64,000 nt of DNA from assembly GCA_011321815.1 (NCBI GenBank), contig DROS01000023.1, positions 27,653-91,652 of the forward strand, in the 5' to 3' direction. A program made the position numbers and the translations under genes. The notes below the pieces were generated by a model. The model did not search any database and was not told the DNA's origin. It saw nothing but the letters and a program-made list of their open reading frames with translations. Of the stretch, positions 1,459 to 36,000 are shown in pieces; the first letter of the stretch is position 1; each line of letters opens with the position of its first letter. The DNA comes from Gammaproteobacteria bacterium (GTDB lineage: Bacteria; Pseudomonadota; Gammaproteobacteria; SZUA-152).

Positions 1459-1512
1459 GTGGCCTCGCAATAAATTATATTCTGTAAAATCTCTGGCTAG
1501 GAGGTGTTAACA

Positions 1513-13904: not shown

Positions 13905-13951
13905 GACATATCTCCAATAGGTTATTCTAACTTATGATTCAGGACAAAATA

Positions 13952-15978: not shown

Positions 15979-16033
15979 ATAACTATCCTTTTACTCTGAT
16001 TATATTTTTAAAATATCACACGTATTTTTATAA

Positions 16034-17317
16034 TTAACGATGATTTTGAAAAACAATACTGGAATTAATTCCACCAAACCCAAACGAATTACTCATTGCA
16101 AGCTCGATATTATCCCTCTCAAATGTTGCCCCACTAAAACGAAGGTCTTGATCAATGGGGTTATCCAGATTCCGGTTAGGGTGAATAAACCCACCTTCCA
16201 TTTGCAGAACCGATGCAATGAATTCCACAACCCCTGCTGAATATAAACAATGACCAGTCAACCCCTTGGTTGAATTGACCCACAACTCTGACACATGATG
16301 TTTAAAAACACGCTTGATTGCCTCCACTTCAGTAGAGTCGCCCAGCGGTGATGAACTGCCATGTGCATTCAAATAATCAATTTCATGTGCCGAAACCCCC
16401 GCTCTGCGCAGCGCCCTATTCATCGCAGCAGCTTCCCCTGCAACATTGGGCTCAGAGGTACTGACACCATCAAGCTTCAGGGCACAACCCAGTACCTTTG
16501 ATCGTATCACCGCCCCTTTGGACTCAGCCACATCACAAGATTGTAAAATCACGCAAGCGCTCGCCTGACCATATACAAAACCAGCATGCTCAGCATCAAA
16601 GGGACGTGAGGCCTGGTCCGGTGATTGAAACTTATTTTTCCCGACCATTGCGCCAATATTGACAAACCCCTGCAACTCAATCGGTGATAAATCCGCCACG
16701 ATGCCTGTGACAAGGCAAGTATCCACAAAACCGGATTGAATCAGCTGCACCGCCTTTATAAGACCGACATTACCACTCGCCGAGGCACCACCAACCACAA
16801 ATCCCTCTCCTTCAATATTAAATATTTCACTGAGTACACCAACCTGATGACTGTCCAGAAATTGAAGCGCATACCTTGGTGACAAATATTCCGGGTCGGT
16901 TGCAAAACCTGCATGCAACCCATAACGATAATTTTGAGTTGTACTCTCTCCAGCAACAATGACTCCCAACCGTTCAGGGTCATTTTTCTGGGAAAACATG
17001 CGGGAATCCTGCCATGCTTCCAGCGCTGACAATACTGACGCCTGTACTGGAAAAGGTGATCGTCGTGCACAACTTTTCGCTTTTTGTAAAAGTTCTTCGG
17101 GAAGATCAGGATAACTGGCAAGGCCATCATTAAATGAAAACCCATTTATTTCAGCACCAATATCCACAGATAATTCTGGCCCTTCTCTTCCGGCCAACCG
17201 GGTGATACCCGAGGTACCATTTTTAAGTGACCGCGTGAAACTCGAAATATTGCCCCCGATAGAAGACACTATTCCCATACCGACAACAGCAACTTTTTTG
17301 CCTGACTCCTTTACCAT
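16034..17317 (-). CDS. Free-standing decarboxylating ketosynthase (PksF-like)
   Basis: Active Cys replaced by Ser (GASASGN); NAHGSSS, GHCL and SNSFGFGG retained. Confidence 0.92.
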   Translation of the reverse strand: MVKESGKKVAVVGMGIVSSIGGNISSFTRSLKNGTSGITRLAGREGPELSVDIGAEINGFSFNDGLASYPDLPEELLQKAKSCARRSPFPVQASVLSALEAWQDSRMFSQKNDPERLGVIVAGESTTQNYRYGLHAGFATDPEYLSPRYALQFLDSHQVGVLSEIFNIEGEGFVVGGASASGNVGLIKAVQLIQSGFVDTCLVTGIVADLSPIELQGFVNIGAMVGKNKFQSPDQASRPFDAEHAGFVYGQASACVILQSCDVAESKGAVIRSKVLGCALKLDGVSTSEPNVAGEAAAMNRALRRAGVSAHEIDYLNAHGSSSPLGDSTEVEAIKRVFKHHVSELWVNSTKGLTGHCLYSAGVVEFIASVLQMEGGFIHPNRNLDNPIDQDLRFSGATFERDNIELAMSNSFGFGGINSSIVFQNHR

Positions 17318-17360
17318 CCCATTTCCTTGCAATTACGTGATAATTACGGCTATTTGTAAT

Positions 17361-17600
17361 TCAGGTGTTATCAACCAAAACATCGACCATTTCTTCAATA
17401 TTTTCCACACCCCCAAAACTGACCAGCGGTAACTTTATCCCCAACCGCTCCATTGATAACATTACTATCTCTGTACGATCAATTGAGTTGGCACCCAGCG
17501 ATTTAAGGTTTTGTTCAATCTTTACACCATCAGAATCGACATCAGGCAATACCTCTGAAATCACATCTTTTACAATCAGAAATACATTTTTCTTTTCCAA
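17361..17600 (-). CDS. Donor ACP of the beta-branching cassette (AcpK-like)
   Basis: LGANSIDR signature. TTG start at 17600 after a GGGAG RBS gives 79 aa. Confidence 0.9.
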   Translation of the reverse strand: MEKKNVFLIVKDVISEVLPDVDSDGVKIEQNLKSLGANSIDRTEIVMLSMERLGIKLPLVSFGGVENIEEMVDVLVDNT

Positions 17601-17620
17601 AATCAACTCTCCCTTATTAA

Positions 17621-20600
17621 TCAATTGTAGAAAAACCAACTTTCGAAAAGTGGGCTCCGTGATGCTTTCCCCATAGTAATCCACTCATTTTCCTCGACCT
17701 GGGCACCCTTAATTTCCGGTGTTTCCAAGATTTCACGACGAGGCAGGCCGGCCCTTGAAATCCAATAGTGTTTTTTGCCAAAAGGATAGGTAGGTAATGG
17801 AACCCGGTTAAGGGTTTTCCCCTTATGTAATAAATCCCAGGGGATATTCCCTCCTTCGACCCAATATTCCCCAAGTTTTTCGAGATTTTTTTCTTGAAAC
17901 AGGTCATTAATAAATCGCCCATCAACGGAATTACGCTGACTTTCTCCTGAAAAAGTCAAAGGCACAGCGGGATATACTGAATCATTTACACCCAAATATT
18001 CCTTAATGCCGGTTATCAGTGATTCGCGGTCAGACACAATCATTGCCAGCCTGACATCCATTTGATCCCGTCCAACCTGAAGCGTATAAGCAAAACTGTC
18101 TAACGGCAGCTCTTCACTTTTTATCACATAATCCAACATCTGCCTTACAAGCAGATCAAGTTGTTTCTTATTACGTGCAGAAAATATGACGAGCTGAGCC
18201 GGGGTTGTGGCGCTTATTTTCTTCTGCCTGGGTATATATTCCTCCAGAATGACATGAGCATTCACCCCACCCATACCAAATGAGCTGATACCTGCCCTAC
18301 GTGGTATAGGCACGCCAGAATCATCGGATAATGCCTGCCATTTTTGTCCATCCTGAACGACAAAAAATGGGCTTCCTTCCAATTGTAAATAAGGACTCAA
18401 TGGAGCGGTGTGGATATTCTTTACCAGCATTGCATGCTTTAGCTGAAGCAATACTTTAATGACACCAATCACACCTGAAGCCAGCTCTGTGTGACCGATA
18501 TTTGTTTTGACGGACCCCAGCCCACAATACGCATTAGCAGTCAAAGATGCGCCTGTATCATTTGAAGGACTATGATGTTTGATCCCGTTAATTAACGACC
18601 TGAATGCCGTTTTAAGACCATCAATTTCAATGGAGTCACCCAACTGTGTGCCAGTGCCGTGAGTTTCTATATAAGTGACTGTTCGCGGATCAATGTTGGC
18701 TTCTTTATAGACCTTTTCCAATAATTGAGTTTGCGCTATGGGATTAGGCGTTGTTAATGAATGTGCCCGTCCCCCATGGCTTTCGGCACCGCCACAAAGC
18801 AAGCCATAGACATGGTCACCTTCTTCTTCGGCACGACTGAGTTTCTTAAGCAGTAAAATTCCAACACCCTCACTTCTTACAAAGCCATCGGCATCAGTTG
18901 AAAAAGTCTTACAGCGCCCATCTCCACTCAGCATACCTGCTTTGTCGTAGGCAATATGCCGTGCCGGGGATAACAATGTATTAACTCCCCCCACAATAGC
19001 CATTTCACAACCCTCATTTAATGCCATCATTCCCCGTCGAATGGCAACCAGAGAACTCGCGCATGCGGTTTCAATAGGCTCACTGGGTCCACGAAGATCA
19101 AGATAAAAACTTATACGGTTAGGCCCCACCGAAGGCTGCGTTCCTGTCGCAGTATACGCTTCAATTTCGCTGCCTGATTTTTCAATTAAACTGTCATAAC
19201 CACTATTCTCGGTGCCGATAAAGACAGCAATATTTTTCCCTGAAAGACTCTTTGGGCTATAACCTGCATCTTCTATGGCGCGATACACATACGTCATCAA
19301 CAAACGCTGCTGAGGGTCCATAAGCTCCGCTTCACGATGTGATATACCAAAAAAATCGGGATCAAATTCTGCCACCCCATTAATAAATCCGCCCCATGTC
19401 ATATGCGGTTTATGTTGACTTTTTTGACTGGAAGTGAAATCGTTTTTTGAATCCCAACGATCCACAGGTACTCTGGTAATACAATCTTTACCGGATTCCA
19501 AATTATTCCAGAAATCATCAAGAGTATCCGCCATCGGGAATTTTCCACTTATTCCGATTACCGCAACACGTTCCGAACAAGATTTTTTTTCAGGGTTCTC
19601 CCCGGTAATTTCCGCCCTCCTCGACAAGGGTTCATTATTTTTAACCAAACACCCTTGTTTGATTAATGAACGTATATTATCCGGCGTTTTGTTGCCTTCT
19701 TTCAATGAAGATAGACTTTTCTTTTTGTGTGGCGTTATTTCCTGCTGTTCTCGATAATATTTAATAATTTCGTCATTATGTTCCGACAACAGATACGTTA
19801 TCAGTTTTTCCAATGTATAATTTCCGAACAAAACCGCAGGCAATACTTCAATATCAAAGTATTGTGAAAGGCGGTGAGAAAATTCAGTCAAACCAATCGA
19901 ATCGAAACCAAACTCCGAAAAATTGGTATCCACATCTAATAATTCATAATTAATTTTTAATTGTTCATGGATTATTTTCTTAAGATCGGATTCAATATAA
20001 ACCCCAATGTCTGATGCACTTAATTGAATATTTTTTTTCTGGGCGAAACTGGGGGCGTTAAAGGTAGGATTATTAAAATTTCTGTCATTATTTATTCCCT
20101 GATAATTTTCTGCTTGTGATTCACTTATAAAGTGACACTGTAGTGAAGGCAATCCTTTGTCGGCAATAACAAACGGGGATGTGTTATATTGCACAAACGC
20201 CAGACCAAACACTTTCTCTATAAATTCACGATTTGAATACAGAAATTCACCATTTTTATGCAAGGTCTTATTCTGTATATCACCACTTTCCACTTCCCAG
20301 TCAACAACAAGTGATTTGCCACATATTATATTTTTTCCCTGAAACCCATCCAAACCGGTCACTTTCACTGTGCGATAAATAACGTGGTTATCACTTCCCG
20401 CGGACTGCTGCTTTATTATGTTTTTCCCAGATAAAAAATCACAGATAAAATCCGGATACTCCTGCTCTGGAACAGGGTTTGCATATATTTTGTTGAAGAT
20501 CTCTACAGACCGTGAAAATTCACATTCCACTTCAGAGCTATTATTTACTGAGCAATCGGATATTGTTCCGGCATAAAAAATACCGTTTATTTTGTGAGCA

Positions 20601-23600: not shown

Positions 23601-24832
23601 GAGGTATGTTGATTATTTGGGTCCGGATGGTACCAATGATCAAATTCCCGCCATCTGTCTTCAGGTACTTCAGTTATGCAATCATGACCGTTTTTTAATA
23701 TATCCCAAAATTCTTCAATATTTTTGCTTTTGGGAAATCGACAAGACATCCCGATAACAGCAATATCCTCACACTGAGGATATTTTCCGTTCAAACCAGT
23801 TGGTGTAAGTCCAGCTGAAGATGACAATGGTATTTTTTTCTTCGTAGCAAATTTTGCTTTACTATTTTTATAATTATCAGCGTTGACTCTTTGTAGCCTT
23901 AATGTATCGACAACCAAAACAGCATTATTATTTTCATCAACTATTTCCAGATATACCTCAACCCAGTTTTCATTAAAATTTTTAACCTCGGCCAACGACG
24001 TAAAGGATTTTCCAATTATTGGGCCACAAACAAAAAGATTATTAATTTTGTAGGGTAAAAAAATATCATTGGTAATATCATGATGTTCACCCAATCGATG
24101 GGGACCATAACTCATTGCATTAGCCAGTGCAGCACTGACCACAGAAGGGTTTAATAAAAATTTGTTTTCCGGTATATCTGCTTCTATTTTTCCCACTGAT
24201 TGTTCCCGGCCAAAAGTGAGGTTTTTTAAAGAATTATAAAATTCACCGAGAACAATATTTGAATCAGATGAGTAATAATCGTCAATCAAAACCTGTCTGG
24301 CACCCTCAATGTGTAGGCCGGGATAATATTTTACTGGTTTATTTGAACGTTTGGTAATTGGGTGAAGATTACCCCTGATATGAATTATTCCTCCACTGCC
24401 ATCAACCTGTGATTTATGGTTAGAGTGCACACTGAACCGAAGATCACTCCCATTTTTCTGAAAAACAAGCGTAACATCGTTCGTTAATGTAGTATCACCC
24501 ACAAGCGGATTAACAATAATGATATTGTTAAACATCATTGAATCAATATTAAAATATGTCTTGCATGCTACCGCAATCATTTCCAAATAGGCGTCGGTAG
24601 GAAAAATTAATTGGCCAAATACTTTATGATTATTTAAACAAATATTATCGCTGGCATTGATCCGGTATTTTATAGCCACCTCGCCTTCACTTTCAAAATC
24701 TCCCACATACTCATTGCTATAAAAATATAAGTCGCTATAAGGCGAAGATTTATTAATTTTAAAATCAACAATCTTTTTCTTTTTGGACAATCGCCTGTAT
24801 TTTCTTGCGCTTTGACTCATTTTAATTTTCAC
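17621..24832 (-). CDS. trans-AT PKS2: DH*-KS3-DH0-KR0-ACP-KS4
   Basis: N-terminal DH HKVFGQLIFP lacks the catalytic Asp. KS3 DTAC/HGTAT/GH. His-less DH. KR lacks the Gly-rich loop (GVYLITCDCEKMG). ACP GFDSI. KS4 ETAC/HGTGT/GH at the C-terminus. Confidence 0.92.
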   Translation of the reverse strand: MKIKMSQSARKYRRLSKKKKIVDFKINKSSPYSDLYFYSNEYVGDFESEGEVAIKYRINASDNICLNNHKVFGQLIFPTDAYLEMIAVACKTYFNIDSMMFNNIIIVNPLVGDTTLTNDVTLVFQKNGSDLRFSVHSNHKSQVDGSGGIIHIRGNLHPITKRSNKPVKYYPGLHIEGARQVLIDDYYSSDSNIVLGEFYNSLKNLTFGREQSVGKIEADIPENKFLLNPSVVSAALANAMSYGPHRLGEHHDITNDIFLPYKINNLFVCGPIIGKSFTSLAEVKNFNENWVEVYLEIVDENNNAVLVVDTLRLQRVNADNYKNSKAKFATKKKIPLSSSAGLTPTGLNGKYPQCEDIAVIGMSCRFPKSKNIEEFWDILKNGHDCITEVPEDRWREFDHWYHPDPNNQHTSYSKWGGFIGDIDKFDPLFFNISPSEAELMDPQQRIFLEEAWRTIESAGYSTESLSARNCGIFVGCTVGDYERLLAMSGEDTNGQSFMGTSSAILAARISYLLNLKGPSLSVDTACSSSLTAIHLACMSIRTGESDLAIAGGVSVFSTPLAHILTSRVRMQSTDGRCFTFDKSANGTVFSEGCGVVMLKPLIQAEKDSDNIIGVIKGSGVNQDGKTNGITAPSARSQESLLRSIYQRYKINPDDITYVEAHGTATPLGDPIEFQALTNAFQNVTKRNQYCAIGSVKSNIGHGSYAAGVAGMIKTLLCLKHNKYVPSVHFKEANNIIDFDHSPFFVSTDYKYWPEPKHGKRMAAVSSFGFSGANAHIVLEEYKIQDSRYKNDRHVLDVANRNSAPVILPLSAKNKDRLMDVVVNLSNYLKACLSNSASGMPKLSEVAYTLQVGRDPMDERVVFVIHSMSDLLEKLDKYIGKQININGCHQGNIKSGSKIISRFKDNPDAEKLLIAWVKKGVTEEYLDLWVNGIRVDWNILYKHEKPNKVILPTYPFSKERYWVSAPITQKSEVHSETVPSSIVIHPLVQFNDSDIFSQIYYSVFDGSEYFFKKNTTHNIAVMENMVFLEMARIAIIAALGDAHKNINIELDNTKWFSDVVVEEEPIKLFIDLYEIKFDENNNFKSVNYNIFSMESDSPEKIIHVQGVGSLGLQSPVENINITNILEDINGSTLNPEQCDEVYELLNIDCVPGDLGLKKVFFGDGQAVVRHCLPDYSLEDGVDYVLHPVPMTLVSKTAIAIIKGVSNVIEKEVKKGENRERLHSDLFLLADSHPVSVKKIRIFSSLGGIMHSWVRYTKGGSSSGTTFKVDISVCDEAGNVCVEVIGYEVEVYLSDNNKNYSEHDRPKKMLSLVDNRQYDVFEDVFDQLDISPIKNNGVYLITCDCEKMGVLLVEYLSQWGAAKIFLVICSEKIDSFKDKLETIETLNVDIQYISHDLLQLSYVKSCLVNTNHLAHKINGIFYAGTISDCSVNNSSEVECEFSRSVEIFNKIYANPVPEQEYPDFICDFLSGKNIIKQQSAGSDNHVIYRTVKVTGLDGFQGKNIICGKSLVVDWEVESGDIQNKTLHKNGEFLYSNREFIEKVFGLAFVQYNTSPFVIADKGLPSLQCHFISESQAENYQGINNDRNFNNPTFNAPSFAQKKNIQLSASDIGVYIESDLKKIIHEQLKINYELLDVDTNFSEFGFDSIGLTEFSHRLSQYFDIEVLPAVLFGNYTLEKLITYLLSEHNDEIIKYYREQQEITPHKKKSLSSLKEGNKTPDNIRSLIKQGCLVKNNEPLSRRAEITGENPEKKSCSERVAVIGISGKFPMADTLDDFWNNLESGKDCITRVPVDRWDSKNDFTSSQKSQHKPHMTWGGFINGVAEFDPDFFGISHREAELMDPQQRLLMTYVYRAIEDAGYSPKSLSGKNIAVFIGTENSGYDSLIEKSGSEIEAYTATGTQPSVGPNRISFYLDLRGPSEPIETACASSLVAIRRGMMALNEGCEMAIVGGVNTLLSPARHIAYDKAGMLSGDGRCKTFSTDADGFVRSEGVGILLLKKLSRAEEEGDHVYGLLCGGAESHGGRAHSLTTPNPIAQTQLLEKVYKEANIDPRTVTYIETHGTGTQLGDSIEIDGLKTAFRSLINGIKHHSPSNDTGASLTANAYCGLGSVKTNIGHTELASGVIGVIKVLLQLKHAMLVKNIHTAPLSPYLQLEGSPFFVVQDGQKWQALSDDSGVPIPRRAGISSFGMGGVNAHVILEEYIPRQKKISATTPAQLVIFSARNKKQLDLLVRQMLDYVIKSEELPLDSFAYTLQVGRDQMDVRLAMIVSDRESLITGIKEYLGVNDSVYPAVPLTFSGESQRNSVDGRFINDLFQEKNLEKLGEYWVEGGNIPWDLLHKGKTLNRVPLPTYPFGKKHYWISRAGLPRREILETPEIKGAQVEENEWITMGKASRSPLFESWFFYN

Positions 24833-24905: not shown

Positions 24906-27900
24906 TCAATCAACCATTTCAACGCCTGAAGATGTTTCACTTACCTTGTTTTTTATAACCTTTTCAAGATAGCGGGAGAATTCACGTAAATTTGTATGGT
25001 CATATACCGCGGTGGCTAAAATAGATGTATTGAACTGATCATTAATTACTTTTATCCATTCAACACCGACAATAGAATCCAGCCCCATATCAATGAATGG
25101 TAATTCGATATTTATATCACTCTCGTCCATGTATAAAGCCTTCGCCAGACTTATCGCAAGTAATTTTTGCAGGTCATCCACCTTTGGGATAATGACATTA
25201 TCTGATTCTGGCGATTTTTTACTTAATCGTTTATTTCTCCTGTGTCTGCTTTTTGGTGGGGTATTATAATCTGAAGCTGGCTGAACATCCTGACTGGCCA
25301 TTTTATTTTCCAAATACCGTGCAAAATCTCGTATCGTAGGATAGTCATAAACAATAGTCGCATTGACATCCAGTGATAGCTTTTGGTTGAGTTCATTTAT
25401 CCATTCAACACCGACAATAGAATCCAGGCCCATTTCGGTAAATTGCCTGTCAATATCCACATCGTTTAATTCCATATACAATGCTCTGGCAAGGCTCTCA
25501 CTTAACACTTTCACAAAATTATATTTTTGTGATATCAACCTTTCCAGGGAAGCTGATGTATCAACAGTATCTGTAATTACAGCTTCATCTGTGTCACTGT
25601 CCATTAATGATATTGTATAATTTTCTTCATGTTGCGCATCCACCACATTCAAATCAAAATTTTGCGATTTTACCTGATGAACTGACTGTAAGTTGAGTAA
25701 AGTAATAGCAGTAGGTTTTTCCGGAATACGTGTGGGAGATTCAAAAAAATGATTTATGGGGCGTGAGACATCAGCCCGCTTTGACACGTCCATGGACTCA
25801 AACCCCAAACCAATTGCCCGGGCACACACATAGCCCTTACTGTCTATAAAGTCGACATCCATCTCTACCATGTTCCTATCTATACCATCTACAGGCAATA
25901 CGGAATGACGCACATTTTTAATCCATGCAAACATATTCCCTGAACATTTCTGGTATATATTCATGGTTCCAAGCATCATGGGAATAAAAGATTGTATAGA
26001 TGACAAATCAGATAATAATGTATTGTCAGTTGTTGACTTATCTGTTTTCTTGGAAACAACAATAGCTGCGGTCAATACCGTCTCTAAAGAATCGGGATTA
26101 AGCGTAAAAGTATAATTTGAATTATGCGCAAGATTATATGACTCATACTTTATCAGCGCGCTACTACCTCCAATATAAATATCTTTTATTTTCCCTTTAT
26201 TTTTAATATATTCCAATTCACCAAGAATCTCATCGCATGCATTTGGGTCAAGATGCCTGCTCATTTTCTTCAGTAAGAATGTTATATCCAGGACTTCCTT
26301 TTTTTCTCTGTCGTCTACATAAACGCACCCCCTGGCATGAAAAACTGAATTTTCTCCCTGTTTTTCACCAGCGGAATAAATTTCAAATTTAACATTCTCA
26401 ATATTATCATTAAGATCCTCATCCAGCGTCAGTGTAATATGTAATTTTCTTTGATCCTTAACAGTAAAACATTCCAGCCATTCAACATCAGACAGAAAAA
26501 CGGTCTTCTGTTGTTGCTCCTTTATACCACTCGCCTGAGAAATTGCAGCATGTACCATTTCAAGGTATGCCATACTTGATAAAACCATTTCTTCATTCAA
26601 TCTGGATTTTTCAAAATATGCTTCTTTACCAGTAAATGTAGAACTGTAACGCTGCGCATATAAATCGGATGTATTTTCATGCAACAACGGGTGAATCTGT
26701 GTTACTTGTTGTAGTGTGGCTGTGTTCCTCATAAATTCCGAGTCTGTTTCTGCAATCCAGTACCTGTCCTTACGGAAAGGATAAGTTGGTAAACTTACCT
26801 TCTCTGGCTTACGGGTATGATATAACTGATCCCAGTTAACCTCTATTCCATTTATCCATAAAGTTGCAATCTTCAGTCCGTCTCCGGAATAAATCCAGTT
26901 ATCAAAAACATTATTAAGTTCGTTATCCAAAGAAAATACATTGAATGTCTTACGGCCCGAACCAATATTGCCACTTATAATTTTTGATGAAGCAACACCT
27001 TCTATACTGATATAATTTCTCAACTTGTCTTTTAGATCAGAAACATCCTTAACCAAAAAGACAACACGTTCGTCCATTTCCTCCCGGCCTGTTTGAAGAG
27101 TGAATGCAATATCTTCCAGTTGAATTGCATTACCTCTGTAACTGTCTCCTGCATTCAGGATATTGGTTTCATTTATTTCTATATAGTTCAGTAAATTATC
27201 AGCATGTAACTTCAAGCGGTCGACTGTTTTTGCGGACAAGGGAATGATGATTTCCTTACCCGAAGATAATCGGGAAACAATTATTTCCTGATTTTTATTG
27301 TTACCACCAATATTCTGAGTAGCAAGGGAATTTACATTACGATATTCTTCGATGATCGCATGTGCATTACTCCCCCCGGCGCCAAAAGAACTTAACATTG
27401 CCCGTAACGGCATCTCTTTTTCCTGGCCATTATTGTCTTTATCAGTAAATGGGCCCCAGGATTTCAGCTCTTTTTGCACGATAAAAGGTGTAGATGAAAA
27501 ATCGATATTTGGGTTTAATTCATCAGCATTGATTGATGGAACCAGCGTCTTGTGTTTCAACTGAAGAAGTAATTTAGTCAACCCTGCAATACCTGCTGCC
27601 GCCTCCAGGTGACCAATATTGGATTTTACTGAACCAATAGCACAAAACTCTTTTTTATCTGTATAGTTGGAAAAGGCTTTTTGCAGTCCTGTAATTTCGA
27701 TGGGATCACCCAGAGATGTGCCTGTCCCGTGTGCCTCAACGTATGAAATCACTTCTGGAGAAATGCCACTTTTATCAAGTGTGGATAATATCAGTTCTGT
27801 TTGTTTAACCGGGTTTGGCACAGTATACCCATTCGTTTTTCCGCCGTGGTTTATGGATGTGCCTTTGATTAAACCATAAATATGGTCACCGTCCCGTATC

Positions 27901-30900
27901 GCATCCTTCAGGCGTTTGAGATAAACAGCCCCAACACCTTCTCCCGGAACATACCCATCTCCGCCACTGCCAAAACTTCGGCATTTTCCATCACTGGAGA
28001 GAAAATTATTATTACTTAGCCATAAATATTTACTCGACGAGAGTGATATGTTGACCCCCCCGACAATAGCACTGTGAGTTTCTTTCCTTTTTAAGCTTTC
28101 ACAAGCCAAATGAAGTGCTGTTAAAGAGGCAGAACAAGCCGTATCCACGGCCAAGCTTGGCCCACACCAGTCAAAGAAAAAAGATACTCTGTTTGCGATG
28201 CTATAAAGCAGCCCGTGTGGCCTTTGCAAATTACCTTTGAAGGTCTGTTCAACGCCCAATGAAATATAGGGTTGCCATAATGCGCCAACAAAAACGCCTA
28301 CAGACTTCCCTTGTAAATTCCTGTAGTTATATCCTGCATCTTCGATGCTCTCCCAGGCCACTTCAAGGAACATACGTTCCTGTGGATCAATTATTGATGC
28401 CTCTCTTGGTGAAATATTAAAAAACAGAGGATCAAATTTATCAATATCATCCAGAAATCCTCCCCACTCTTCAGGCAACAGATTTTTATCTGGAAACATC
28501 TTTTGTAATGCCTGGCGATCAAATCTTGATTCAGGTATTTTGCTGATACTGTCTCTGCCAGATTTTAAATTTTCCCAGAATTCCGCAAGATTTTTTGCCT
28601 CTGGGTATCTTCCGCTCATACCAACAATTGCAACCGGTTCCTTGTCCATAAAATCTTCCGGAACAGTCTCATCGTTGTCAGCGACATTCACAAAAATGTC
28701 ATTACCCGCGGGCGCGTCTTCATCATCTTGATGATATTCCCCCACACCATCAGTTACCGTTGTTTTTTCATCTGGAGAACCTGTACCAGAATTCTCCGCT
28801 CCTATTATTCTTTTCAGGGTATTCTGGTGATTCGCCAAAAAATATTCTGCCAACTCTTGAATACTCTTATACTCAAAAAATAATGTTTTTGACAAATTTC
28901 CAAACATTTGATCAAGACGCCGATTAAGATCAACGATCATTACAGAATTTATGCCATATGTTTCCAGTTGAACATCGGCTTCAATATCACAAGGCGGCAT
29001 TCCAATGGCCTCGGATAAAGTCTCTTTTAATATCTCACTTACCTGTTCAACGGTTATATCTGAAGGCTTAGCATCAGAATTATACTTGCCTGTTGGCTTT
29101 GCTTTTTGTGCTTCGGAATATTCATTTGTATGTGTCAGATTGCGCAATGACAATCCCTTGACTTCAACAACAATATTCCCATCTGTCGTAATAATACTTG
29201 CATTATATTTTTTGATTTCATTATTTTCTTTATTTAAGGACATTGTTTCTGTATGCACATAACATTCTTTTGGTATTTTCTTATGTACAATAATTTCATC
29301 AATTGCTATGGGTATAAACTTGCTGCTATTTATCCCGTCTGGCTTGTTGTTAAGCAATGCCGTTTGCAAAACGCCAGTAAGCATACTGGGATGGAGAACA
29401 TAATCCTCATAGGTATCTGCTATAAACTCGGGCAATTTCAAGTGCGATAGCGCCTCTCTTTCGCTCAAATTTACCTGAATCATCGGCTGAAAACTCGGGC
29501 CCACATGCAATCCTTCAGAGTGTATAAATTGATAAATTTCCTCTGTTTTCCGGATTACAGAACAACGGCTTTTAATTTCATCAAAATCAATTGTTCCCAA
29601 TGGGCTTTCATCAATATTTGAAATCAATTTTGTATGCACTTGACCAAGTGCATGAAGCACTCTTCCACTACCTTCTGCGTGGGTTATTTCATATTCATAG
29701 AAATCGTCTTTTTTCATCAGGCGTAAATCCGCCTGAATAGGATCGCCGGGTGTGGAAAGCTGTTTTGCCCAATAATTATTAGACAACTTTAATACATTCT
29801 TACCCTGTTCCAACAAATTTCCCGCCTGCAAAGCCATTTCTATATAGCAGGCTCCCGGAACGTTATACAGGCCTTCCACAACATGATCCTTCATAAAAAA
29901 CTCTTCATCAGATAATGTTTTTTGGAAAATCAATTTGGAACTGTCTGAAAAATCCACATCAATCAACGCCTGCCCTGGCGTGAACCATGATTCCTCTTGG
30001 CCCTCAGCAGTATTCCATATGGAATTATCAAGCAATCTTTCACTGTAATTATCCCAAAGATATCCCGATATTTTTGACACTGTATTAAGATCAAAAAATA
30101 AAGTTGGGTCCACATCCAGAGAAAAAACCTTATTGATTGACGCTGTGATCTTTGAAATCCCGACGGAATCAATTCCATAATCTGTCAGATTATCCGAATC
30201 ACCGATATCTTTTGAATCTTCACCTGAATTTGAAATTATTTCTCGTATTTTTTCTTTCAAGGATGCTTCATTCGTTAAATTGTCTTTATAAAAAGAATAA
30301 TCACGTGATAATACACTCAGGTGTTTTTCGATCTTATATTGATCCCCTTCAATCACAATTAACTGATCAGGAAGAGATGTCATTCCCTGGCGCAAAATAT
30401 TGTCAAAAATGAATAAACCCCTATCATTCTCCAACGCTTTCATTCCAAAAACGTCCCACAGGTGATCCTCTTCTTCCTTTATCACCCCAATTCCGCCGTT
30501 TTTCCATAATGGCCAATTAATCGCAATCGCTCTGCCAGATCTTTTTCCCTGTTCCGTCAATTGATTCCTGTATGACGAAAATTCATCTAAAAAACTATTT
30601 GCTGCCGCGTAATCACATTGCCCTTGATTGGGCATAATAGAGGCAATTGATGAAAATAAAATGAAAAAATCCAGTTGATCCTGTTTGGTTGCCTTATCCA
30701 AATTCACTGTTCCCATTATTTTAGGCGCAATGACATTGTCAAATGATTCCCTGGTTTTATTTATTATGTAAGCGTCTTCAATCAGGCCCGCACAATTAAG
30801 CACACCATTTAGGTGAATACCTTTCTCCCGAAATTCTTGACAGGCATTTATTAAAGAGGTGTTATTGTTTATATCCGCAGCGTAATACTGTCCATCTCCA

Positions 30901-33900
30901 CCCAATTTGCATAACTGCGCAAGCTTTCTTTCAATTTTTTTATTTTTCTTTGAGCGTCCAATCAGGATCAATTTTGCGCTATAGTTTTCGGCAAGGTATT
31001 GCGCAAACAGATAACCCAACCCTCCCGCACCACCGGCTATCAGATAAGTTCCATTCTGTTTGATTATGGATTCATTCGATGATGTTGAGAAATTTTTATG
31101 CGCCACAATCATGCGGACTTTTCTTTGCCCATTCGCATATTGAACTTCATTGAGGGGTGCATTCCGGTAAAAACCCAATTCCTGCATGACTGCATTGGCG
31201 ATTTTTTCTGGGTTATATTCACCTAACCCAACAGAAGTAATATTGATGTGGGGATTCTCAAATTTCAAGGTTCTTGAGAACCCTCCCACTGATGCATGCA
31301 GGCATGATGCCACAGTCTCACGCATGGAATATAAATATAAAATACGAACCCGCTTTGATAGTTTAGACAGTATCAGGGACTGTGTTATCGACAGTAATGA
31401 CTTTATTCCAAAATCAATATTATGTGATACCGATGGGTTATTTTTATAATTCCATTTGTATATTACTGATTCCGGTTCTACATCTTGGCTTTTAATATCA
31501 TCCCACAATAAACCAAGTGAATCTCTGTTTTCCCGATTAACTGTATAAGAGTTTTCGCCTGTCTTTTTAAATTTATCCCCCATTTTTACTAAAATAACCG
31601 TCTGATATTTTCCTGCCTTACGCAAAAAATTTGTCAGCGATGGATTAGTATCAAAAACAATTACAGTGGAAAGTCTTTCACAATGCATTCCTGATTTTCG
31701 TGGAATCCATTGTGGAACATAATGCAATATATTGTTTTCCATATTACCTTTCTCATCATTTACAGGAATATTGTTCTGGGAAGTATTATTTGATGATATT
31801 GATGGCCTATATATACGCTTAACAAAGTCAGAAAATTCAATAATAATATTTCCTTTCCGATCACATAAATACATATTAAAAACAGTCTGACCGTCTTTTG
31901 ATGACTTGGCATTTATGGTTGAATACACGTAACAGGAATCAGGAATTTTTCCGTGCAATGTAATACTCTTTAAATAAAAAGGGACCTTCTGCTTCTGCTT
32001 TTCTTCTGCGTTTAATACCTGTAATGCAACCACAGATTGAAAAACCCCATCCATCATGGATGGTTCAAGAGCATTGCCCGTGGTGTTAAGGGTAAAAATA
32101 TTGATGTCAGAAGACTGTTTTAACTCACACAATATTTCCGTTTTGTTATAGTTGCAGGATTTTATTGTCTGAAAACTCTCACCATAAAGTAACCCGTTAT
32201 TTTTAAATTGATGGTACAACTCCCTGGGAGCCTGGGTTGATTGACATCGATTTTTTATTTTTTCAATATCAAGTCTACGCAATGGCTTTTCCTGACAACC
32301 ACCAATAACAGTCCCCGTACAATATATTTTTCCGTCACTTTCCAATGACAGGTTGTAGCTATTATCCGAATCATTTTTGCTATATTTCACATTGACACGA
32401 ACGTCCTGCTCTACTTTAATCGCTTGCGCCCAATAAACGTCCCTTAATGACTGGACAGGTTCCTGACTTATTTTTTCGCCAATTTCCTGAAAAATATCCA
32501 GACATTTTACCCCCGGAACAATATTTACGCCTTTGACAATGTGATCACGTATAAAATAATCCGACTTTTGGAAAATTTTATATGCAGAGATTCCCTCTTT
32601 TGTTTTAGTTGACTTTTCATTCGTTTCTTCATCCGGTGGCGTTTTATTTTCATCTGGACGAGGAAACCAGCAATGCTTTTTCTGGAATGGGTATGCCGGC
32701 AATTGAATTCTGTTTCCTGACTGATATTGACTTAACCCTTTCCAGTCAACATCACTACCTTTTACCCAGCATTTGGCGAATTCATCAATATTGTCAGATT
32801 GCGGAACAAATTCAGCTATTTTATTACGTGTATCACCAGAAAAAATCCGGTCGCTATGCTTGTTTTCGGTGAATGCTTTCAAAAGCCCCAACAGCTGCCG
32901 ATAATCGTCGGCTAAAAATATAACTCGTTTTTCCAACGCTTCACGCCCACTTTGCAACGTAAAACATACATCTGAAAGAGAACAGTATTCCTCTCTTCCA
33001 TTCAGGTAGTTATAAACCGATGCAACGTATTCATGTAATTGCTCATGTGTTTTGGCCGAAAGTGGAACTACATATTTTTTATCTGTTAATAATGGATTAT
33101 CAGTTGATTTTTCTCTATCAACAAAAGGCGGTTCTTCCACTATTATGTGCGCATTAACCCCCCCCATTCCAAAAGAACTGATTCCCGCCCGCAGTGGATG
33201 TTCAACGCCATCCATAGTGACGTTATTCCATTGCTGATTTTTATCCACAATATAAAAAGGACTGTCATCCAATTTAATATATGGGTTCAATTTCTCAAAA
33301 TGCAGCAATGATGGTATTCGTTTATATTTAATGCTGAGCAAGACCTTGATAAGCCCTGCAACGCCCGCAGCACTTTCAAGATGGCCGACATTTGTTTTGG
33401 TTGAGGTCAAACCACAAAAAGGGGATTCATCTCCACTTAAATAAGGCTTGTATGCCTGCTTAAGCGCATTGATCTCAATGGGATCTCCAAGAGGTGTCCC
33501 TGTACCATGTGTTTCAATATACCCGATGGTTTTTGGATCGACATTTGCGGCGGAAATTGCAGCGCTGATGGTGGCGGCCTGTGCCGAAACTTTGGGGGCA
33601 GTTAAAAAATTTGACCGTCCTCCGTGCTTTACTGCTGAACCTTTGATTACCCCCAGAATATTGTCGTTATCTGACAATGCCTGATCCAAAGATTTGATAA
33701 AAACGACACCGACACCTTCGCCTCGGACATATCCATTAGCCTTGGCGTCAAATGATCTGCAATTACCGTCCTCTGACAGCATTCCGGATTTGCTGTGTGA
33801 GATATACATCGTTGGACTGAGGATAGCATTTACCCCGCCAACAACAGCGGCTTCACAAAATCCATTATTAATATCGTTAACGGCATTATCCAGCGCAACC

Positions 33901-34451
33901 AGAAAGCTGGAACATGCCGTATCAACAACTTCACTTTTACCTTGAAAATCAAATAAATATGATACGCGATTTGCAAGAATTGAATGTACTGTACCCGTTG
34001 ATAAAAAAGAGATAATCGGAATCTGATTTTCCCTCATCAGCTCCGCATAATCGTTTTTCGACACACCGGCATACACGCCAATATCTCTTCCTGACAGGCT
34101 TTTCGGGTTATATCCCGCATCCTCAATTGCATGCCATGCTGACTCCAGAAACAACCTGTGTTGCGGGTCCATATAGCTTGCTTCACGTGGTGATATATTA
34201 AAAAAAAGTGGGTCAAACATATCCACATTTTCAATAAACCCGCCATATTTTATGTTTGTTTTACTGTCTTCGCTGGTGGGGTCACCGTAATAGTCTTCCC
34301 AGTTCCACCGGTCCCCTGGTATTTCAGTCACACAATTTTTTCCGGCGATTAAATTATTCCAATATTCTTCATAATTCTTCGCACCGGGAAATCGGCAAGC
34401 CATCCCAATAATTGCAATATCACCAACTTCCCTGCTGTTTTTTGTTTTCAT
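24906..34451 (-). CDS. trans-AT PKS1: KS1-DH-KR-ACP-DH*-ACP-KS2-DH0-ACPbeta-ACPbeta
   Basis: KS1 and KS2 have intact C/H/H. DH HIVKGVNIVP...MDG. KR GGAGGLG / LIED / YAAAN. ACP GIDS. DH HVVEGLYNVP...LTG. ACP GINS. Two ACPs with GLDSIVGVEW (Trp flag of beta-branch acceptors). Confidence 0.94.
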   Translation of the reverse strand: MKTKNSREVGDIAIIGMACRFPGAKNYEEYWNNLIAGKNCVTEIPGDRWNWEDYYGDPTSEDSKTNIKYGGFIENVDMFDPLFFNISPREASYMDPQHRLFLESAWHAIEDAGYNPKSLSGRDIGVYAGVSKNDYAELMRENQIPIISFLSTGTVHSILANRVSYLFDFQGKSEVVDTACSSFLVALDNAVNDINNGFCEAAVVGGVNAILSPTMYISHSKSGMLSEDGNCRSFDAKANGYVRGEGVGVVFIKSLDQALSDNDNILGVIKGSAVKHGGRSNFLTAPKVSAQAATISAAISAANVDPKTIGYIETHGTGTPLGDPIEINALKQAYKPYLSGDESPFCGLTSTKTNVGHLESAAGVAGLIKVLLSIKYKRIPSLLHFEKLNPYIKLDDSPFYIVDKNQQWNNVTMDGVEHPLRAGISSFGMGGVNAHIIVEEPPFVDREKSTDNPLLTDKKYVVPLSAKTHEQLHEYVASVYNYLNGREEYCSLSDVCFTLQSGREALEKRVIFLADDYRQLLGLLKAFTENKHSDRIFSGDTRNKIAEFVPQSDNIDEFAKCWVKGSDVDWKGLSQYQSGNRIQLPAYPFQKKHCWFPRPDENKTPPDEETNEKSTKTKEGISAYKIFQKSDYFIRDHIVKGVNIVPGVKCLDIFQEIGEKISQEPVQSLRDVYWAQAIKVEQDVRVNVKYSKNDSDNSYNLSLESDGKIYCTGTVIGGCQEKPLRRLDIEKIKNRCQSTQAPRELYHQFKNNGLLYGESFQTIKSCNYNKTEILCELKQSSDINIFTLNTTGNALEPSMMDGVFQSVVALQVLNAEEKQKQKVPFYLKSITLHGKIPDSCYVYSTINAKSSKDGQTVFNMYLCDRKGNIIIEFSDFVKRIYRPSISSNNTSQNNIPVNDEKGNMENNILHYVPQWIPRKSGMHCERLSTVIVFDTNPSLTNFLRKAGKYQTVILVKMGDKFKKTGENSYTVNRENRDSLGLLWDDIKSQDVEPESVIYKWNYKNNPSVSHNIDFGIKSLLSITQSLILSKLSKRVRILYLYSMRETVASCLHASVGGFSRTLKFENPHINITSVGLGEYNPEKIANAVMQELGFYRNAPLNEVQYANGQRKVRMIVAHKNFSTSSNESIIKQNGTYLIAGGAGGLGYLFAQYLAENYSAKLILIGRSKKNKKIERKLAQLCKLGGDGQYYAADINNNTSLINACQEFREKGIHLNGVLNCAGLIEDAYIINKTRESFDNVIAPKIMGTVNLDKATKQDQLDFFILFSSIASIMPNQGQCDYAAANSFLDEFSSYRNQLTEQGKRSGRAIAINWPLWKNGGIGVIKEEEDHLWDVFGMKALENDRGLFIFDNILRQGMTSLPDQLIVIEGDQYKIEKHLSVLSRDYSFYKDNLTNEASLKEKIREIISNSGEDSKDIGDSDNLTDYGIDSVGISKITASINKVFSLDVDPTLFFDLNTVSKISGYLWDNYSERLLDNSIWNTAEGQEESWFTPGQALIDVDFSDSSKLIFQKTLSDEEFFMKDHVVEGLYNVPGACYIEMALQAGNLLEQGKNVLKLSNNYWAKQLSTPGDPIQADLRLMKKDDFYEYEITHAEGSGRVLHALGQVHTKLISNIDESPLGTIDFDEIKSRCSVIRKTEEIYQFIHSEGLHVGPSFQPMIQVNLSEREALSHLKLPEFIADTYEDYVLHPSMLTGVLQTALLNNKPDGINSSKFIPIAIDEIIVHKKIPKECYVHTETMSLNKENNEIKKYNASIITTDGNIVVEVKGLSLRNLTHTNEYSEAQKAKPTGKYNSDAKPSDITVEQVSEILKETLSEAIGMPPCDIEADVQLETYGINSVMIVDLNRRLDQMFGNLSKTLFFEYKSIQELAEYFLANHQNTLKRIIGAENSGTGSPDEKTTVTDGVGEYHQDDEDAPAGNDIFVNVADNDETVPEDFMDKEPVAIVGMSGRYPEAKNLAEFWENLKSGRDSISKIPESRFDRQALQKMFPDKNLLPEEWGGFLDDIDKFDPLFFNISPREASIIDPQERMFLEVAWESIEDAGYNYRNLQGKSVGVFVGALWQPYISLGVEQTFKGNLQRPHGLLYSIANRVSFFFDWCGPSLAVDTACSASLTALHLACESLKRKETHSAIVGGVNISLSSSKYLWLSNNNFLSSDGKCRSFGSGGDGYVPGEGVGAVYLKRLKDAIRDGDHIYGLIKGTSINHGGKTNGYTVPNPVKQTELILSTLDKSGISPEVISYVEAHGTGTSLGDPIEITGLQKAFSNYTDKKEFCAIGSVKSNIGHLEAAAGIAGLTKLLLQLKHKTLVPSINADELNPNIDFSSTPFIVQKELKSWGPFTDKDNNGQEKEMPLRAMLSSFGAGGSNAHAIIEEYRNVNSLATQNIGGNNKNQEIIVSRLSSGKEIIIPLSAKTVDRLKLHADNLLNYIEINETNILNAGDSYRGNAIQLEDIAFTLQTGREEMDERVVFLVKDVSDLKDKLRNYISIEGVASSKIISGNIGSGRKTFNVFSLDNELNNVFDNWIYSGDGLKIATLWINGIEVNWDQLYHTRKPEKVSLPTYPFRKDRYWIAETDSEFMRNTATLQQVTQIHPLLHENTSDLYAQRYSSTFTGKEAYFEKSRLNEEMVLSSMAYLEMVHAAISQASGIKEQQQKTVFLSDVEWLECFTVKDQRKLHITLTLDEDLNDNIENVKFEIYSAGEKQGENSVFHARGCVYVDDREKKEVLDITFLLKKMSRHLDPNACDEILGELEYIKNKGKIKDIYIGGSSALIKYESYNLAHNSNYTFTLNPDSLETVLTAAIVVSKKTDKSTTDNTLLSDLSSIQSFIPMMLGTMNIYQKCSGNMFAWIKNVRHSVLPVDGIDRNMVEMDVDFIDSKGYVCARAIGLGFESMDVSKRADVSRPINHFFESPTRIPEKPTAITLLNLQSVHQVKSQNFDLNVVDAQHEENYTISLMDSDTDEAVITDTVDTSASLERLISQKYNFVKVLSESLARALYMELNDVDIDRQFTEMGLDSIVGVEWINELNQKLSLDVNATIVYDYPTIRDFARYLENKMASQDVQPASDYNTPPKSRHRRNKRLSKKSPESDNVIIPKVDDLQKLLAISLAKALYMDESDINIELPFIDMGLDSIVGVEWIKVINDQFNTSILATAVYDHTNLREFSRYLEKVIKNKVSETSSGVEMVD
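25051..25427 (+). repeat. 32-nt identical core in the two tandem beta-branch ACPs
   Basis: tttatccattcaacaccgacaatagaatccag at 25051-25082 and 25396-25427. Confidence 0.9.
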
Positions 34452-34566: not shown

Positions 34567-36000
34567 TTATCCGGAAATACTGACCGGCGACCGTGTTTCT
34601 TTCCTGTAGTCCGTTAGACTGCCGACAACATGAACTTCGCCTCCCTTTATAAAACCCAGGTCACCCGTTCGCAAATACGGTCCATCCTCAGAGCCCTCAG
34701 GATAAACGTTAAATATTCTTTCTGTTTCAGCTGGCTGGTTCCAATAACCCAGAGCATTACATTTACTACTGACCAGAATCTCTCCTAATTCGAGCTCACT
34801 ACACCTTGTCAAAGTCCCTGGAATAATAACCACTACCCGTGTATCGCTTACTGGCAGCCCACAACTTGTGATTTTGGCTTCTGCATGACTATCCTGGTTA
34901 TTCTCTGCCATTCCCCCGGATAAGCGCTGCATCGACTTGCGTGGAATAATTGTGGGATTTTTAGGATAATTGCTTTCTGATGCCACATAAGCTGATTCCG
35001 CCAACCCATAAAATGAAGTCAAGGCCATTTCCTTTAAACCACAATAACTGAATTTTTTAAAAAAACTGTCCATCGTTTCTTTATTCACAGATTCTCCACT
35101 GCTATATGCAGTTTTCCACCCGGACAGATTCAGGCTATTTTCTTTGGGGTCAGACACCTGGTCGACGCACATGCGGTATGCAAAATCAGGGGCGCCACTG
35201 AATGTAATTTCATATCTGGTTATTGCATTCAGCCAATTTCCAGGGTTTTTATAAAAATCAAACTGCGAACATATATATCCCCTGTACCCGCAATAAAGCG
35301 GCTGAAGAATACCTAGCGCCAAACCTAAATAATGATAATTTGGTAACCAGTGCACCGATCTGCTCGATGCAGTTAATTTATAGTCATTTTTGATGGATTC
35401 ATGTACGGAATTAATATTGTCATGACTTATCATGACAAATTTCGGGCTTCCTTCTCTGGCGCTGGCTGATGTTCGCTGCAAATAAGCGGTACTATTACTG
35501 TCGACTACCGGCATGCTCCAATGATTGATTAAATCATCATTTACGTCCTCGACCGCCAATAAAATTTTCTGGGATAATTTACTGGATTTGAAAAAACACT
35601 GTACCACCTCATTTAATATTGAGGTGCTTGTAAGCACAACATTGCTGCCGGTTTCTTCAATGATATTTTCAACGTGACATATCCGGGCATCATCATGTTG
35701 AGTGGCCCGCGGTGGAGCTGTTACCACCGGCACTGCGCCGCTATACATTACTCCCAGAAAAGCATAAATAAATTCCAGACCTTGAGGGAAAAGCAGTAGG
35801 ACTCTATCCGACGGGTCAATTATTTGTTGCAGCCTTCCCGCAACTGCTGTTGCCCGTGTATACAGCTGTTGATTGGATAATTGATTTACCACATCGCATT
35901 GATCATCCAGATAGGCAAAGGCAAGCTTGTCCGGCGCCTGTTTAACTCTTGCGGCCAATGCTTCCATTAAGTTAGCTGGTTGTTGCATTATGTCTCTCAC
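34567..36000 (-). CDS. Fatty acyl-AMP ligase (FAAL)-like protein, degenerate and C-terminally truncated
   Basis: FAAL-like N-terminus (DRVLLLFPQGLEFIYAFLG, YGLAE, YLRTGDLGF). P-loop altered to YLQRTSASAREGSPKF. Stops about 20 aa after the hinge (GSLTD), at 477 aa. Confidence 0.82.
   Translation of the reverse strand: MRDIMQQPANLMEALAARVKQAPDKLAFAYLDDQCDVVNQLSNQQLYTRATAVAGRLQQIIDPSDRVLLLFPQGLEFIYAFLGVMYSGAVPVVTAPPRATQHDDARICHVENIIEETGSNVVLTSTSILNEVVQCFFKSSKLSQKILLAVEDVNDDLINHWSMPVVDSNSTAYLQRTSASAREGSPKFVMISHDNINSVHESIKNDYKLTASSRSVHWLPNYHYLGLALGILQPLYCGYRGYICSQFDFYKNPGNWLNAITRYEITFSGAPDFAYRMCVDQVSDPKENSLNLSGWKTAYSSGESVNKETMDSFFKKFSYCGLKEMALTSFYGLAESAYVASESNYPKNPTIIPRKSMQRLSGGMAENNQDSHAEAKITSCGLPVSDTRVVVIIPGTLTRCSELELGEILVSSKCNALGYWNQPAETERIFNVYPEGSEDGPYLRTGDLGFIKGGEVHVVGSLTDYRKETRSPVSISG

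Follow-up and report, generated by a model that had tools for sequence, protein, structure and literature searches.

How can a polyketide chain pass two acyl carrier proteins (ACPs) that flank a dehydratase-like domain when no ketosynthase (KS) stands between them? The question is raised by PKS1, a protein encoded in a small trans-acyltransferase (trans-AT) polyketide synthase (PKS) cluster on the minus strand of contig DROS01000023.1 of a Gammaproteobacteria bacterium (assembly GCA_011321815.1). The window analysed here is the whole 64,000-nucleotide stretch of this contig from position 27,653 to 91,652, and all coordinates below are those of the window. Pfam searches on sub-regions and our own hidden Markov models gave the order KS1-DH1-KR-ACP1-DHx-ACP2-KS2-DH(inactive)-ACP-ACP for PKS1 (DH, dehydratase; KR, ketoreductase), in which DHx is the dehydratase-like domain between the two carriers. 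The part from KS1 to KS2 may be a portable, self-priming initiation cassette that would make but-3-enoyl, a reading to which we give a probability of about 0.45.

24906-34451, minus strand: PKS1 open reading frame (ORF), 3181 amino acids (aa)
33129-34421, minus strand: KS1, with Cys-His-His; opens the line and has no ACP upstream
31806-32615, minus strand: DH1, ordinary dehydratase with His637 and Asp801
30417-31667, minus strand: KR; NADPH motif present, Tyr1281 catalytic
30051-30257, minus strand: ACP1, GIDS motif, Ser1429 (codon 30165-30167), P-class carrier
29130-29966, minus strand: DHx, double-hotdog domain; His1523 in HVVEGLYNVP, Asn1530, Val1650 in place of Tyr, Thr1692 in place of Asp in HPSMLTG; Pro and Gln kept
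28833-29039, minus strand: ACP2, GINS motif, Ser1836 (codon 28944-28946), K-class carrier
27342-28637, minus strand: KS2, Cys-His-His; exclusive clade with motifs GALWQPY and LLYSIANR; last domain of the conserved cassette
24960-26687, minus strand: rest of module 2; its DH is inactive, and its tandem ACPs, which contain GLDSIVGVEW, we take to be of the beta-branch type

The initial annotation had read this stretch as ACP-DH-ACP without a KS, with a second DH that keeps His and has Thr in place of the catalytic Asp, and on both points it was right. The motifs lie where it placed them, a Pfam scan of the ACP1, DHx and ACP2 segments at E<=1 matched no KS, and inter-domain gaps of 29 aa (ACP1 to DHx) and 31 aa (DHx to ACP2) leave no room for a hidden one.

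Conservation and position of the cassette

Two protein searches with ACP1-DHx-ACP2 as query listed the best 120 and the best 150 matches, and the 250 proteins retrieved are a floor. At least 72 of them have the ACP-DH-ACP architecture; eight of the 72 are KS-ACP-DH-ACP proteins with a normal Asp and were excluded from the family counts. KR-ACP-DHx-ACP is common to at least 64 of the 250, none of which has a KS in the gap before the DHx-type domain. These 64 proteins were selected by architecture and not by motif. Their Asp site holds Thr in 62, Ser in one and Ala in one, and an Asn stands two residues before the Pro in 64 of 64. An altered active site shared by 64 homologues argues that the carrier-DHx-carrier stretch is a product neither of chance nor of decay.

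DHx homologues come from several phyla. The exact degenerate motif was found at 47 loci in 45 GTDB genomes, and the hosts include Chryseobacterium, Pedobacter, Paenibacillus, Sorangium, Enhygromyxa, Chromobacterium, Sulfidibacter, Methyloglobulus and Thermoanaerobaculia. Of 400 genomes sampled from the class of the window, one had DHx, namely the genome of the window itself (one genome unscored), and among the 11 genomes of the family of Sulfidibacter it was present in Sulfidibacter only. The cassette is widespread but sporadic. A plasmid search gave 82 matching records, none of which reached 80% coverage of the query, and a protein search for longer homologues added three fragments.

Exactly one KS lies upstream of DHx in 85 of 93 distinct pooled DHx domains, none in eight fragments and more than one in no case; therefore, the cassette always opens the assembly line. 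DHx forms a single clade (92 of 92, support 0.999, in a tree with 260 of the 683 other DHs sampled), and so do KS1 (83 members, support 1.0) and KS2 (support 0.85; each of the 84 members follows a DHx). Since the modules downstream of KS2 differ between clusters, the inherited block runs from KS1 to KS2. KS1 represents an exclusive starter-KS clade with the motifs GVSKNDY, STGTVHSILANR, PTMYISH and SFGMGG. The lines opened by the cassette range from three KSs (Methyloglobulus, Agarilytica) to more than 15,000 residues (Chryseobacterium). The Cys-His-His of KS1 is intact in 82 of 82 homologues, and DH1 keeps His and Asp in 81 of 81 and Tyr in 80 of 81. Neighbour clustering and Pfam revealed no loading gene common to the 14 extended clusters.

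Nature of DHx

The predicted structure of DHx is a complete double hotdog (pLDDT 92). A fold search put it among DHs, a placement that indicates no function, with the best Z scores (34.6-34.3) to trans-AT DH structures. Aligned to DH1 of PksJ (8QK4; Z 34.3, rmsd 2.0, 260 aligned residues), DHx keeps the His and has Thr at the Asp and Val at the Tyr position. Among 92 homologues, the His and the Pro of HxxxxxxxxP are each kept in 91 and the Gln in all 92; the Asp site is Thr in 90, Ser in one and Ala in one, and the Tyr site is Val in 87, Ile in three and Leu in two. DHx also has two invariant Cys and one invariant loop Asn, the count of which is partly circular in this group because the 92 were picked by a motif containing it. 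In the same 99 records the identity among homologues is 0.46 for DHx versus 0.32 for DH1, and this better conservation argues that DHx is maintained under constraint. Local decay into a pseudo-domain was ruled out on this ground.

In most known enoyl isomerases (EIs) the Pro of HxxxxxxxxP is replaced by Leu or Val and the Gln/His of DxxxQ/H by Val or Leu (PMC11672594). DHx retains both residues and scores weakly on the PksR isomerase, and we therefore do not file it in the EI family. It groups with DH1 (support 0.83) and may have arisen separately from the known EIs, perhaps by duplication of DH1. Against the pyran synthase SorB PS (6B2V) it scores 71 bits, versus 171 to DH. Pyran synthases and DH-cyclases are placed after an active DH in a KS-DH-PS-KR module (PS, pyran synthase) and act on chains that bear a distal hydroxyl, and DHx lies between the two ACPs of module 1 instead. 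MadA, MadB and LnmK were not among the 40 sequence matches or the 50 structure rows listed for DHx. Its role is probably that of an isomerase converting crotonyl to but-3-enoyl.

The two carriers

The phosphopantetheine Ser is kept in both carriers (ACP1, 88 of 88 covered; ACP2, 89 of 89). In the other modules of our data set, a single ACP position predicts the superclade of the downstream KS: ACPs with Lys (K-class) stand before the KS2 superclade 275 times and never before the KS1 superclade, and those with Pro (P-class) stand before the KS1 superclade 167 times and never before the KS2 superclade. A further 146 Lys or Pro ACPs precede other KSs, and the same data set held no comparable link between ACP class and the upstream KS. 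In 89 of 90 homologues ACP1 is of the P-class and thus belongs to the carriers that feed KS1-type, never KS2-type, KSs. ACP2 has Lys or Arg in 88 of 89 and is therefore the normal partner type of KS2; a profile test likewise assigned it to the KS2 superclade in 89 of 89.

The two also differ in conservation. Identity among ACP1 orthologues is 0.32 (helix II 0.25) versus 0.34 (0.33) among unrelated P-class ACPs, and among ACP2 orthologues 0.54 (0.52) versus 0.49 (0.44) among unrelated K-class ACPs. A diverged ACP1 and a conserved ACP2 would fit few and many partners, respectively. Tandem copies were found of ACP2 in 26 of 93 homologues and of ACP1 in none of the 93. The view of the initial annotation that both ACPs serve module 1 appears right in outline, but the carriers are not equivalent: class, conservation and duplication differ, and the difference in class sets them apart from near-identical, redundant tandem ACPs.

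Predicted product and a natural deletion

The cluster of Sulfidibacter corallicola (L039, L074, L075, L085-L087) suggests what the cassette may make. Its order is the cassette, KR-ACP-KS, two ACPs with a flavin halogenase-like fold, KS-OMT-ACP, KS-DH-KR-cMT-ACP, KS-KR-ACP, KS0-DH-ACP-KR with 484 residues without an assigned domain, two KS-KR-ACP, KS0-OMT-ACP, KS-ACP and a Cy-Cy-A-PCP-Ox oxazole module (OMT, O-methyltransferase; cMT, C-methyltransferase); another oxazole module and two pairs of DH and pyran synthase come further on. The tail of phorboxazole we take to be BrCH=CH-CH2-CH(OMe)-, within a 9-bromo-1-hydroxy-6-methoxy-3-methylnona-2,4,8-trienyl side chain, followed by a methoxy hemiketal ring. 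Up to the first oxazole, the Sulfidibacter modules as read from their domains would fit this tail and ring unit by unit. The bacterial family of Sulfidibacter makes 'phorbactazoles' by a trans-AT PKS (10.1101/2024.08.18.608444). With four carbons before KS2 and an alkene at the far end, the colinearity implies one condensation and one shift, and but-3-enoyl (vinylacetyl), with its terminal vinyl group, is thus the likely product of the cassette. The colinearity with this tail lends indirect support to the embedded isomerase that the initial annotation had considered, although the published EI signature is missing from it. The protein with the halogenase-like fold (L039:16290-18356; feature score 0.96), in which Pfam matched the ACPs only, is a candidate enzyme for on-line vinyl halogenation; used as query, it gave no match in the five genomes tried, G416 and G417 included.

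These two genomes, G416 (L091-L092) and G417 (L093), carry a homologous oxazole line, but its start is KS(Ser-His-His)-ACP-KS-KR. Their first KS falls within the KS1 clade (support 1.0) and their second within the KS2 clade (0.98), and the ACP scores as ACP2 (74-79 bits versus 36-43 for ACP1). DH1-KR-ACP1-DHx is cleanly missing, and the catalytic Cys of KS1 has become Ser. ACP1 was thus lost together with the condensation, and the remaining KS(Ser)-ACP2-KS2 implies that malonyl is loaded on ACP2, on which KS1 acts and which passes its chain to KS2. KSQ loading domains are described in a preprint on the gladiolin starter, and by extension to the Ser variant, a step of our own, the start in G416 and G417 would be a decarboxylating starter and the apparent birth of a loading module from the cassette by deletion. 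In the full cassette an Asp precedes the Ser of ACP2 in only one of 89 homologues. The resulting NS motif was set aside as a mark of non-malonylated ACPs, being weak and contradicted by G416 and G417.

Proposed mechanism and alternatives

In the mechanism that we propose, the trans-AT would malonylate both ACP1 and ACP2. KS1 would decarboxylate malonyl-ACP1 and take the acetyl onto its Cys, so that ACP1 would serve as a loading carrier within the module. KS1 would then condense the acetyl with malonyl-ACP2, KR and DH1 would convert the product to crotonyl-ACP2, and DHx, by means of its single His, would move the alkene from alpha,beta to beta,gamma. The unconjugated isomer is the less stable one, and KS2 would pull it forward by taking it from ACP2. 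Neither a KS0, the chain-transferring KS of known shift modules, nor a KS-free transfer would be required; the KS-independent transfer offered by the initial annotation would be unneeded because KS1 itself would link the two ACPs. The priming role of ACP1 is the tentative part of this proposal, somewhat short of an even chance. A little less firmly still, the cassette may stand for an initiation class whose loading ACP lies downstream of its own KS, in which the chain goes back (ACP1 to KS1) and then forward (KS1 to ACP2 to KS2), with an independently evolved His/Asn/Thr isomerase, in one portable part of 2,400 residues that would give any trans-AT polyketide a terminal vinyl handle.

Several observations weigh against this proposal. 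DHx lacks the EI signature, with Pro retained in 91 and Gln in 92 of the 92 homologues; its profile scores 171 bits on DH versus 61 on the PksR EI, and its structure gives Z 34.3 with DH versus 27.0 with the PksR EI. ACP1 occupies the normal elongation position, and we saw nothing that would keep KS1 from condensing on it as well. The profile test was only partly informative on ACP1: of 90 cases, 33 went to the KS1 superclade, 57 elsewhere and none to the KS2 superclade. The KS superclades have supports of 0.67 and 0.84 and consist of related sequences, and the rule of ACP classes may reflect co-inherited ACP-KS blocks and not docking. One homologue, P0135, is without most of ACP1 and carries two copies of ACP2. 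The Sulfidibacter cluster has no compound linked to it here, and its macrolide half departs from phorboxazole, with two C-methyltransferases detected after the oxazole versus three expected.

The normal elongation slot of ACP1 would be accounted for if KS1 doubled as the missing KS0: elongation would take place on ACP1, crotonyl would return to KS1 and pass to an empty ACP2, and DHx would isomerise it there to the same product. A return of enoyl chains to the KS of the same module is shown for gladiolin module 5 (10.1101/2023.11.30.569433), the class of ACP1 feeds KS1-type KSs, loss of the Asp before the ACP Ser, as in ACP2, is weakly commoner behind KS0 domains (3 of 16 versus 21 of 685), and the unit would understandably work in first position only. 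However, this route requires an ACP2 that escapes malonylation, whereas in G416 and G417 the same NS-type ACP2 must receive malonyl; an intact KS1 would extend crotonyl to C6, and ACP1 is the least conserved carrier though it would have the most partners. We consider this route unlikely, though the need for the KS0 Cys in ACP-to-ACP transfer in hangtaimycin (PMC8456789) favours models in which a KS makes the link from ACP1 to ACP2, as it would both here and in the proposed priming by ACP1. The loss of most of ACP1 in P0135 would instead suit two parallel carriers around an inserted isomerase, either of which could be elongated, processed and delivered to KS2, with ACP1 as a dispensable helper. 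The Ser kept in both ACPs, the grouping of DHx with DH1, which fits an internal duplication, the His-only DH of PKS2, which would act without a KS0 behind its ACPs (fused to them in P0123 and L059), and the tolerance of engineered lines for mismatched KSs (PMC11260071) are in keeping with it. True tandem copies are, however, always of ACP2, and a P-class ACP stands ahead of a KS of the KS2 superclade in 0 of 293 natural pairs, which makes parallel delivery improbable.

The missing EI signature also leaves room for other chemistry on DHx (direct beta,gamma-dehydration, E/Z isomerisation or a pyran-synthase-like conjugate addition) or for two extensions by the cassette. The loss of Tyr (to Val) and of Asp presumably resembles cyclase-type DHs, and two ACPs could hold two extender units. 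Nevertheless, elimination of water is hardly to be expected without Asp and Tyr while DH1 is intact in 81 of 81, a first intermediate of four carbons offers no hydroxyl for cyclisation, and the carbon count of the Sulfidibacter line, read against the phorboxazole tail, permits one extension; such schemes appear quite improbable. Finally, DHx itself might act independently of a KS, either by passing the acyl chain of ACP1 on to ACP2 or by decarboxylating malonyl-ACP1. Hotdog folds do decarboxylate malonyl-ACP through a loop Asn, as with Asn45 of MadB and the double-hotdog LnmK (PMC8666670), and DHx has its invariant loop Asn and two invariant Cys. In our reading of the motifs, however, the Asn of DHx appears to be out of register with that of MadB; KS1 alone suffices for priming in G416 and G417, which have no DHx, and no domain would be left for the alkene shift that a phorboxazole-type tail needs. 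This appears very improbable.

Relation to known systems

The cassette is real and conserved, and would combine a variant form of alkene shifting with the start of the chain. Like DHx, the DH* (EI) of trans-AT shift modules of the type KS0-DH*(EI)-ACP (bacillaene PksR EI, PDB 4U3V; rhizoxin; corallopyronin) is a double hotdog with His and no Asp beside an ACP, with a proposed alpha,beta to beta,gamma shift. In contrast to these, the cassette has no KS0 and no EI substitutions of Pro and Gln, has a DHx far from 4U3V in sequence, occurs in the first module only and has DH, KS1 and KS2 clades of its own. The type A dehydrating bimodule KS-KR-ACP-KS0-DH-ACP of hangtaimycin HtmA1 (PMC8456789) is alike in its two ACPs, both of which could be required, its one condensation and its late DH-fold domain; there, however, the KS0 Cys is a required transacylase, whereas the cassette has no second KS and its DHx no Asp. 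KSQ-type loading modules and ACP-less first KSs (lacunalide KS1, PMC11260071) likewise obtain an acetyl starter from malonyl-ACP, and the KS(Ser)-ACP2 of G416 and G417 resembles them; the KS1 of the full cassette keeps Cys-His-His, and the ACP proposed to load it is located within the module, downstream of it. Module 5 of gladiolin and etnangien, an iterating trans-AT module, is a precedent for an ACP that returns the chain to the KS of its own module, but has one ACP and repeated elongation where the cassette has two different ACPs and apparently one elongation. Like the hotdog decarboxylases MadA/MadB and LnmK, DHx has a hotdog fold and a conserved loop Asn and would act on ACP thioesters in chain initiation; unlike them, it retains the His of DHs, which it resembles in both sequence and fold.

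We know of no tested mechanism for the cassette. No published description was found in the text-searchable literature, a search that is blind to figures and did not cover the most relevant papers; 'ACP-DH-ACP' together with 'trans-AT' gave no match, and the accessible text of the gladiolin starter preprint and of the janustatin, Aquimarina and RAIChU papers held nothing on it. The architecture has probably already been drawn somewhere. The initial annotation had allowed that it might be common and already explained: it is widespread, though sporadic, and no published explanation came to light.

If the proposed priming and shift are correct, an N-terminal KS-DH-KR-ACP-DHx-ACP-KS would predict a terminal allyl or vinyl group in the products of orphan clusters from at least 45 genomes and would explain the vinyl-halide tail of phorboxazole-type compounds. 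It would also mean that a carrier feeds its upstream KS by design and that the DH fold gave rise to alkene-shift activity a second time. As a self-contained starter part the cassette would need only malonyl-CoA and NADPH, its C4 product would make testing easy, and the vinyl group would be a useful chemical handle for engineered polyketides.

Neighbouring genes and related loci

The window holds further genes of the line and its surroundings:

23879-24664, minus strand: N-terminal DH of PKS2, His-only, without Asp; a family distinct from DHx
13155-17684, minus strand: beta-branching genes, with a donor ACP (read from sequence), a stand-alone KS, an HMG synthase and two enoyl-CoA hydratases
34567-36000, minus strand: AMP-binding acyl ligase-like gene, degenerate, with a broken P-loop and without the C-terminal subdomain

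The initial annotation had also noted a DH* in PKS2; this domain has the His and no Asp. This domain comes after the beta-branch ACPs without a KS0. Its family has HxVFGQxxFPTDAY and Ser at the Asp site and stands right after beta-branch ACPs, split from them in the window and fused in P0123 and L059. We propose it as a second candidate for a shift free of KS0. Less firmly, the line in the window may continue to a beta-methyl-branched hexadienoyl, in which the PKS2 DH would shift the second alkene. Two putative isomerases had seemed an excess for one enoyl unit and one branch; with two alkenes there would be one shift for each.

A fatty-acyl starter from the ligase-like gene was ruled out, as the gene is degenerate and absent from distant clusters; its P-loop is broken likewise in the nine close relatives examined. 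In 14 related loci it nevertheless still stands immediately upstream of PKS1, and a non-catalytic role is possible. Just upstream of the cassette, L071/L041 (Chromobacterium piscinae), L052 and L055 have another small line (ligase-KS-KR-ACP and KS-DH-DH-ACP), whose ligase is fused to a KS with a TVH motif and no ACP between. Stand-alone AprA/GphF-like methyltransferase-GNAT (MT-GNAT) proteins lie beside the cassette at L033:4-2136 and L027:17940-20042. They were set aside as proof that ACP1 is a loading ACP, for they adjoin a beta-branch donor ACP and may serve that ACP. No stand-alone KS was seen beside them and the donor ACP in the fetched stretches of these two loci, where the MT-GNAT may supply a longer branch unit. 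In P0123, L059 and P0019 an ACP-less or truncated MT-GNAT is fused ahead of KS1 and is ambiguous for the same reason.

Very short cassette clusters in L020, L031, L035 and L063 end in a thioesterase-lipocalin fusion and have upstream a protein of about 260 aa without an assigned family, seen in eight ORFs. L058 is a 5.7-kb contig in a metagenome-assembled genome labelled Cyclobacteriaceae; its DHx is 99% identical to that of the window, which may reflect mis-binning or a very recent transfer. Between 4000 and 36000 of the window the GC content is 0.35-0.49, with its minimum in the PKS genes, versus about 0.47-0.54 outside, and this drop over the cluster suggests horizontal acquisition. The first KS of PKS3 (10514-11800, minus strand) has HGASS instead of HGTGT and directly follows the C-terminal KS of PKS2; the relative in L080 has no counterpart, and this KS may be surplus. 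A 322-aa protein without a Pfam match (2860-3828, minus strand) also adjoins the cluster in L015, and in L080 an ORF of the same length follows the sulfotransferase. One relative shares with the window a line with an unreduced end and a sulfotransferase. At 1504-2703 (plus strand) the window encodes a protein with a NERD nuclease and a UvrD C-terminal domain, seemingly without the helicase core. Further PKS loci with similarity to its DH or ACP domains lie on contigs C9, C53, C77, C91 and C92 of the same genome.

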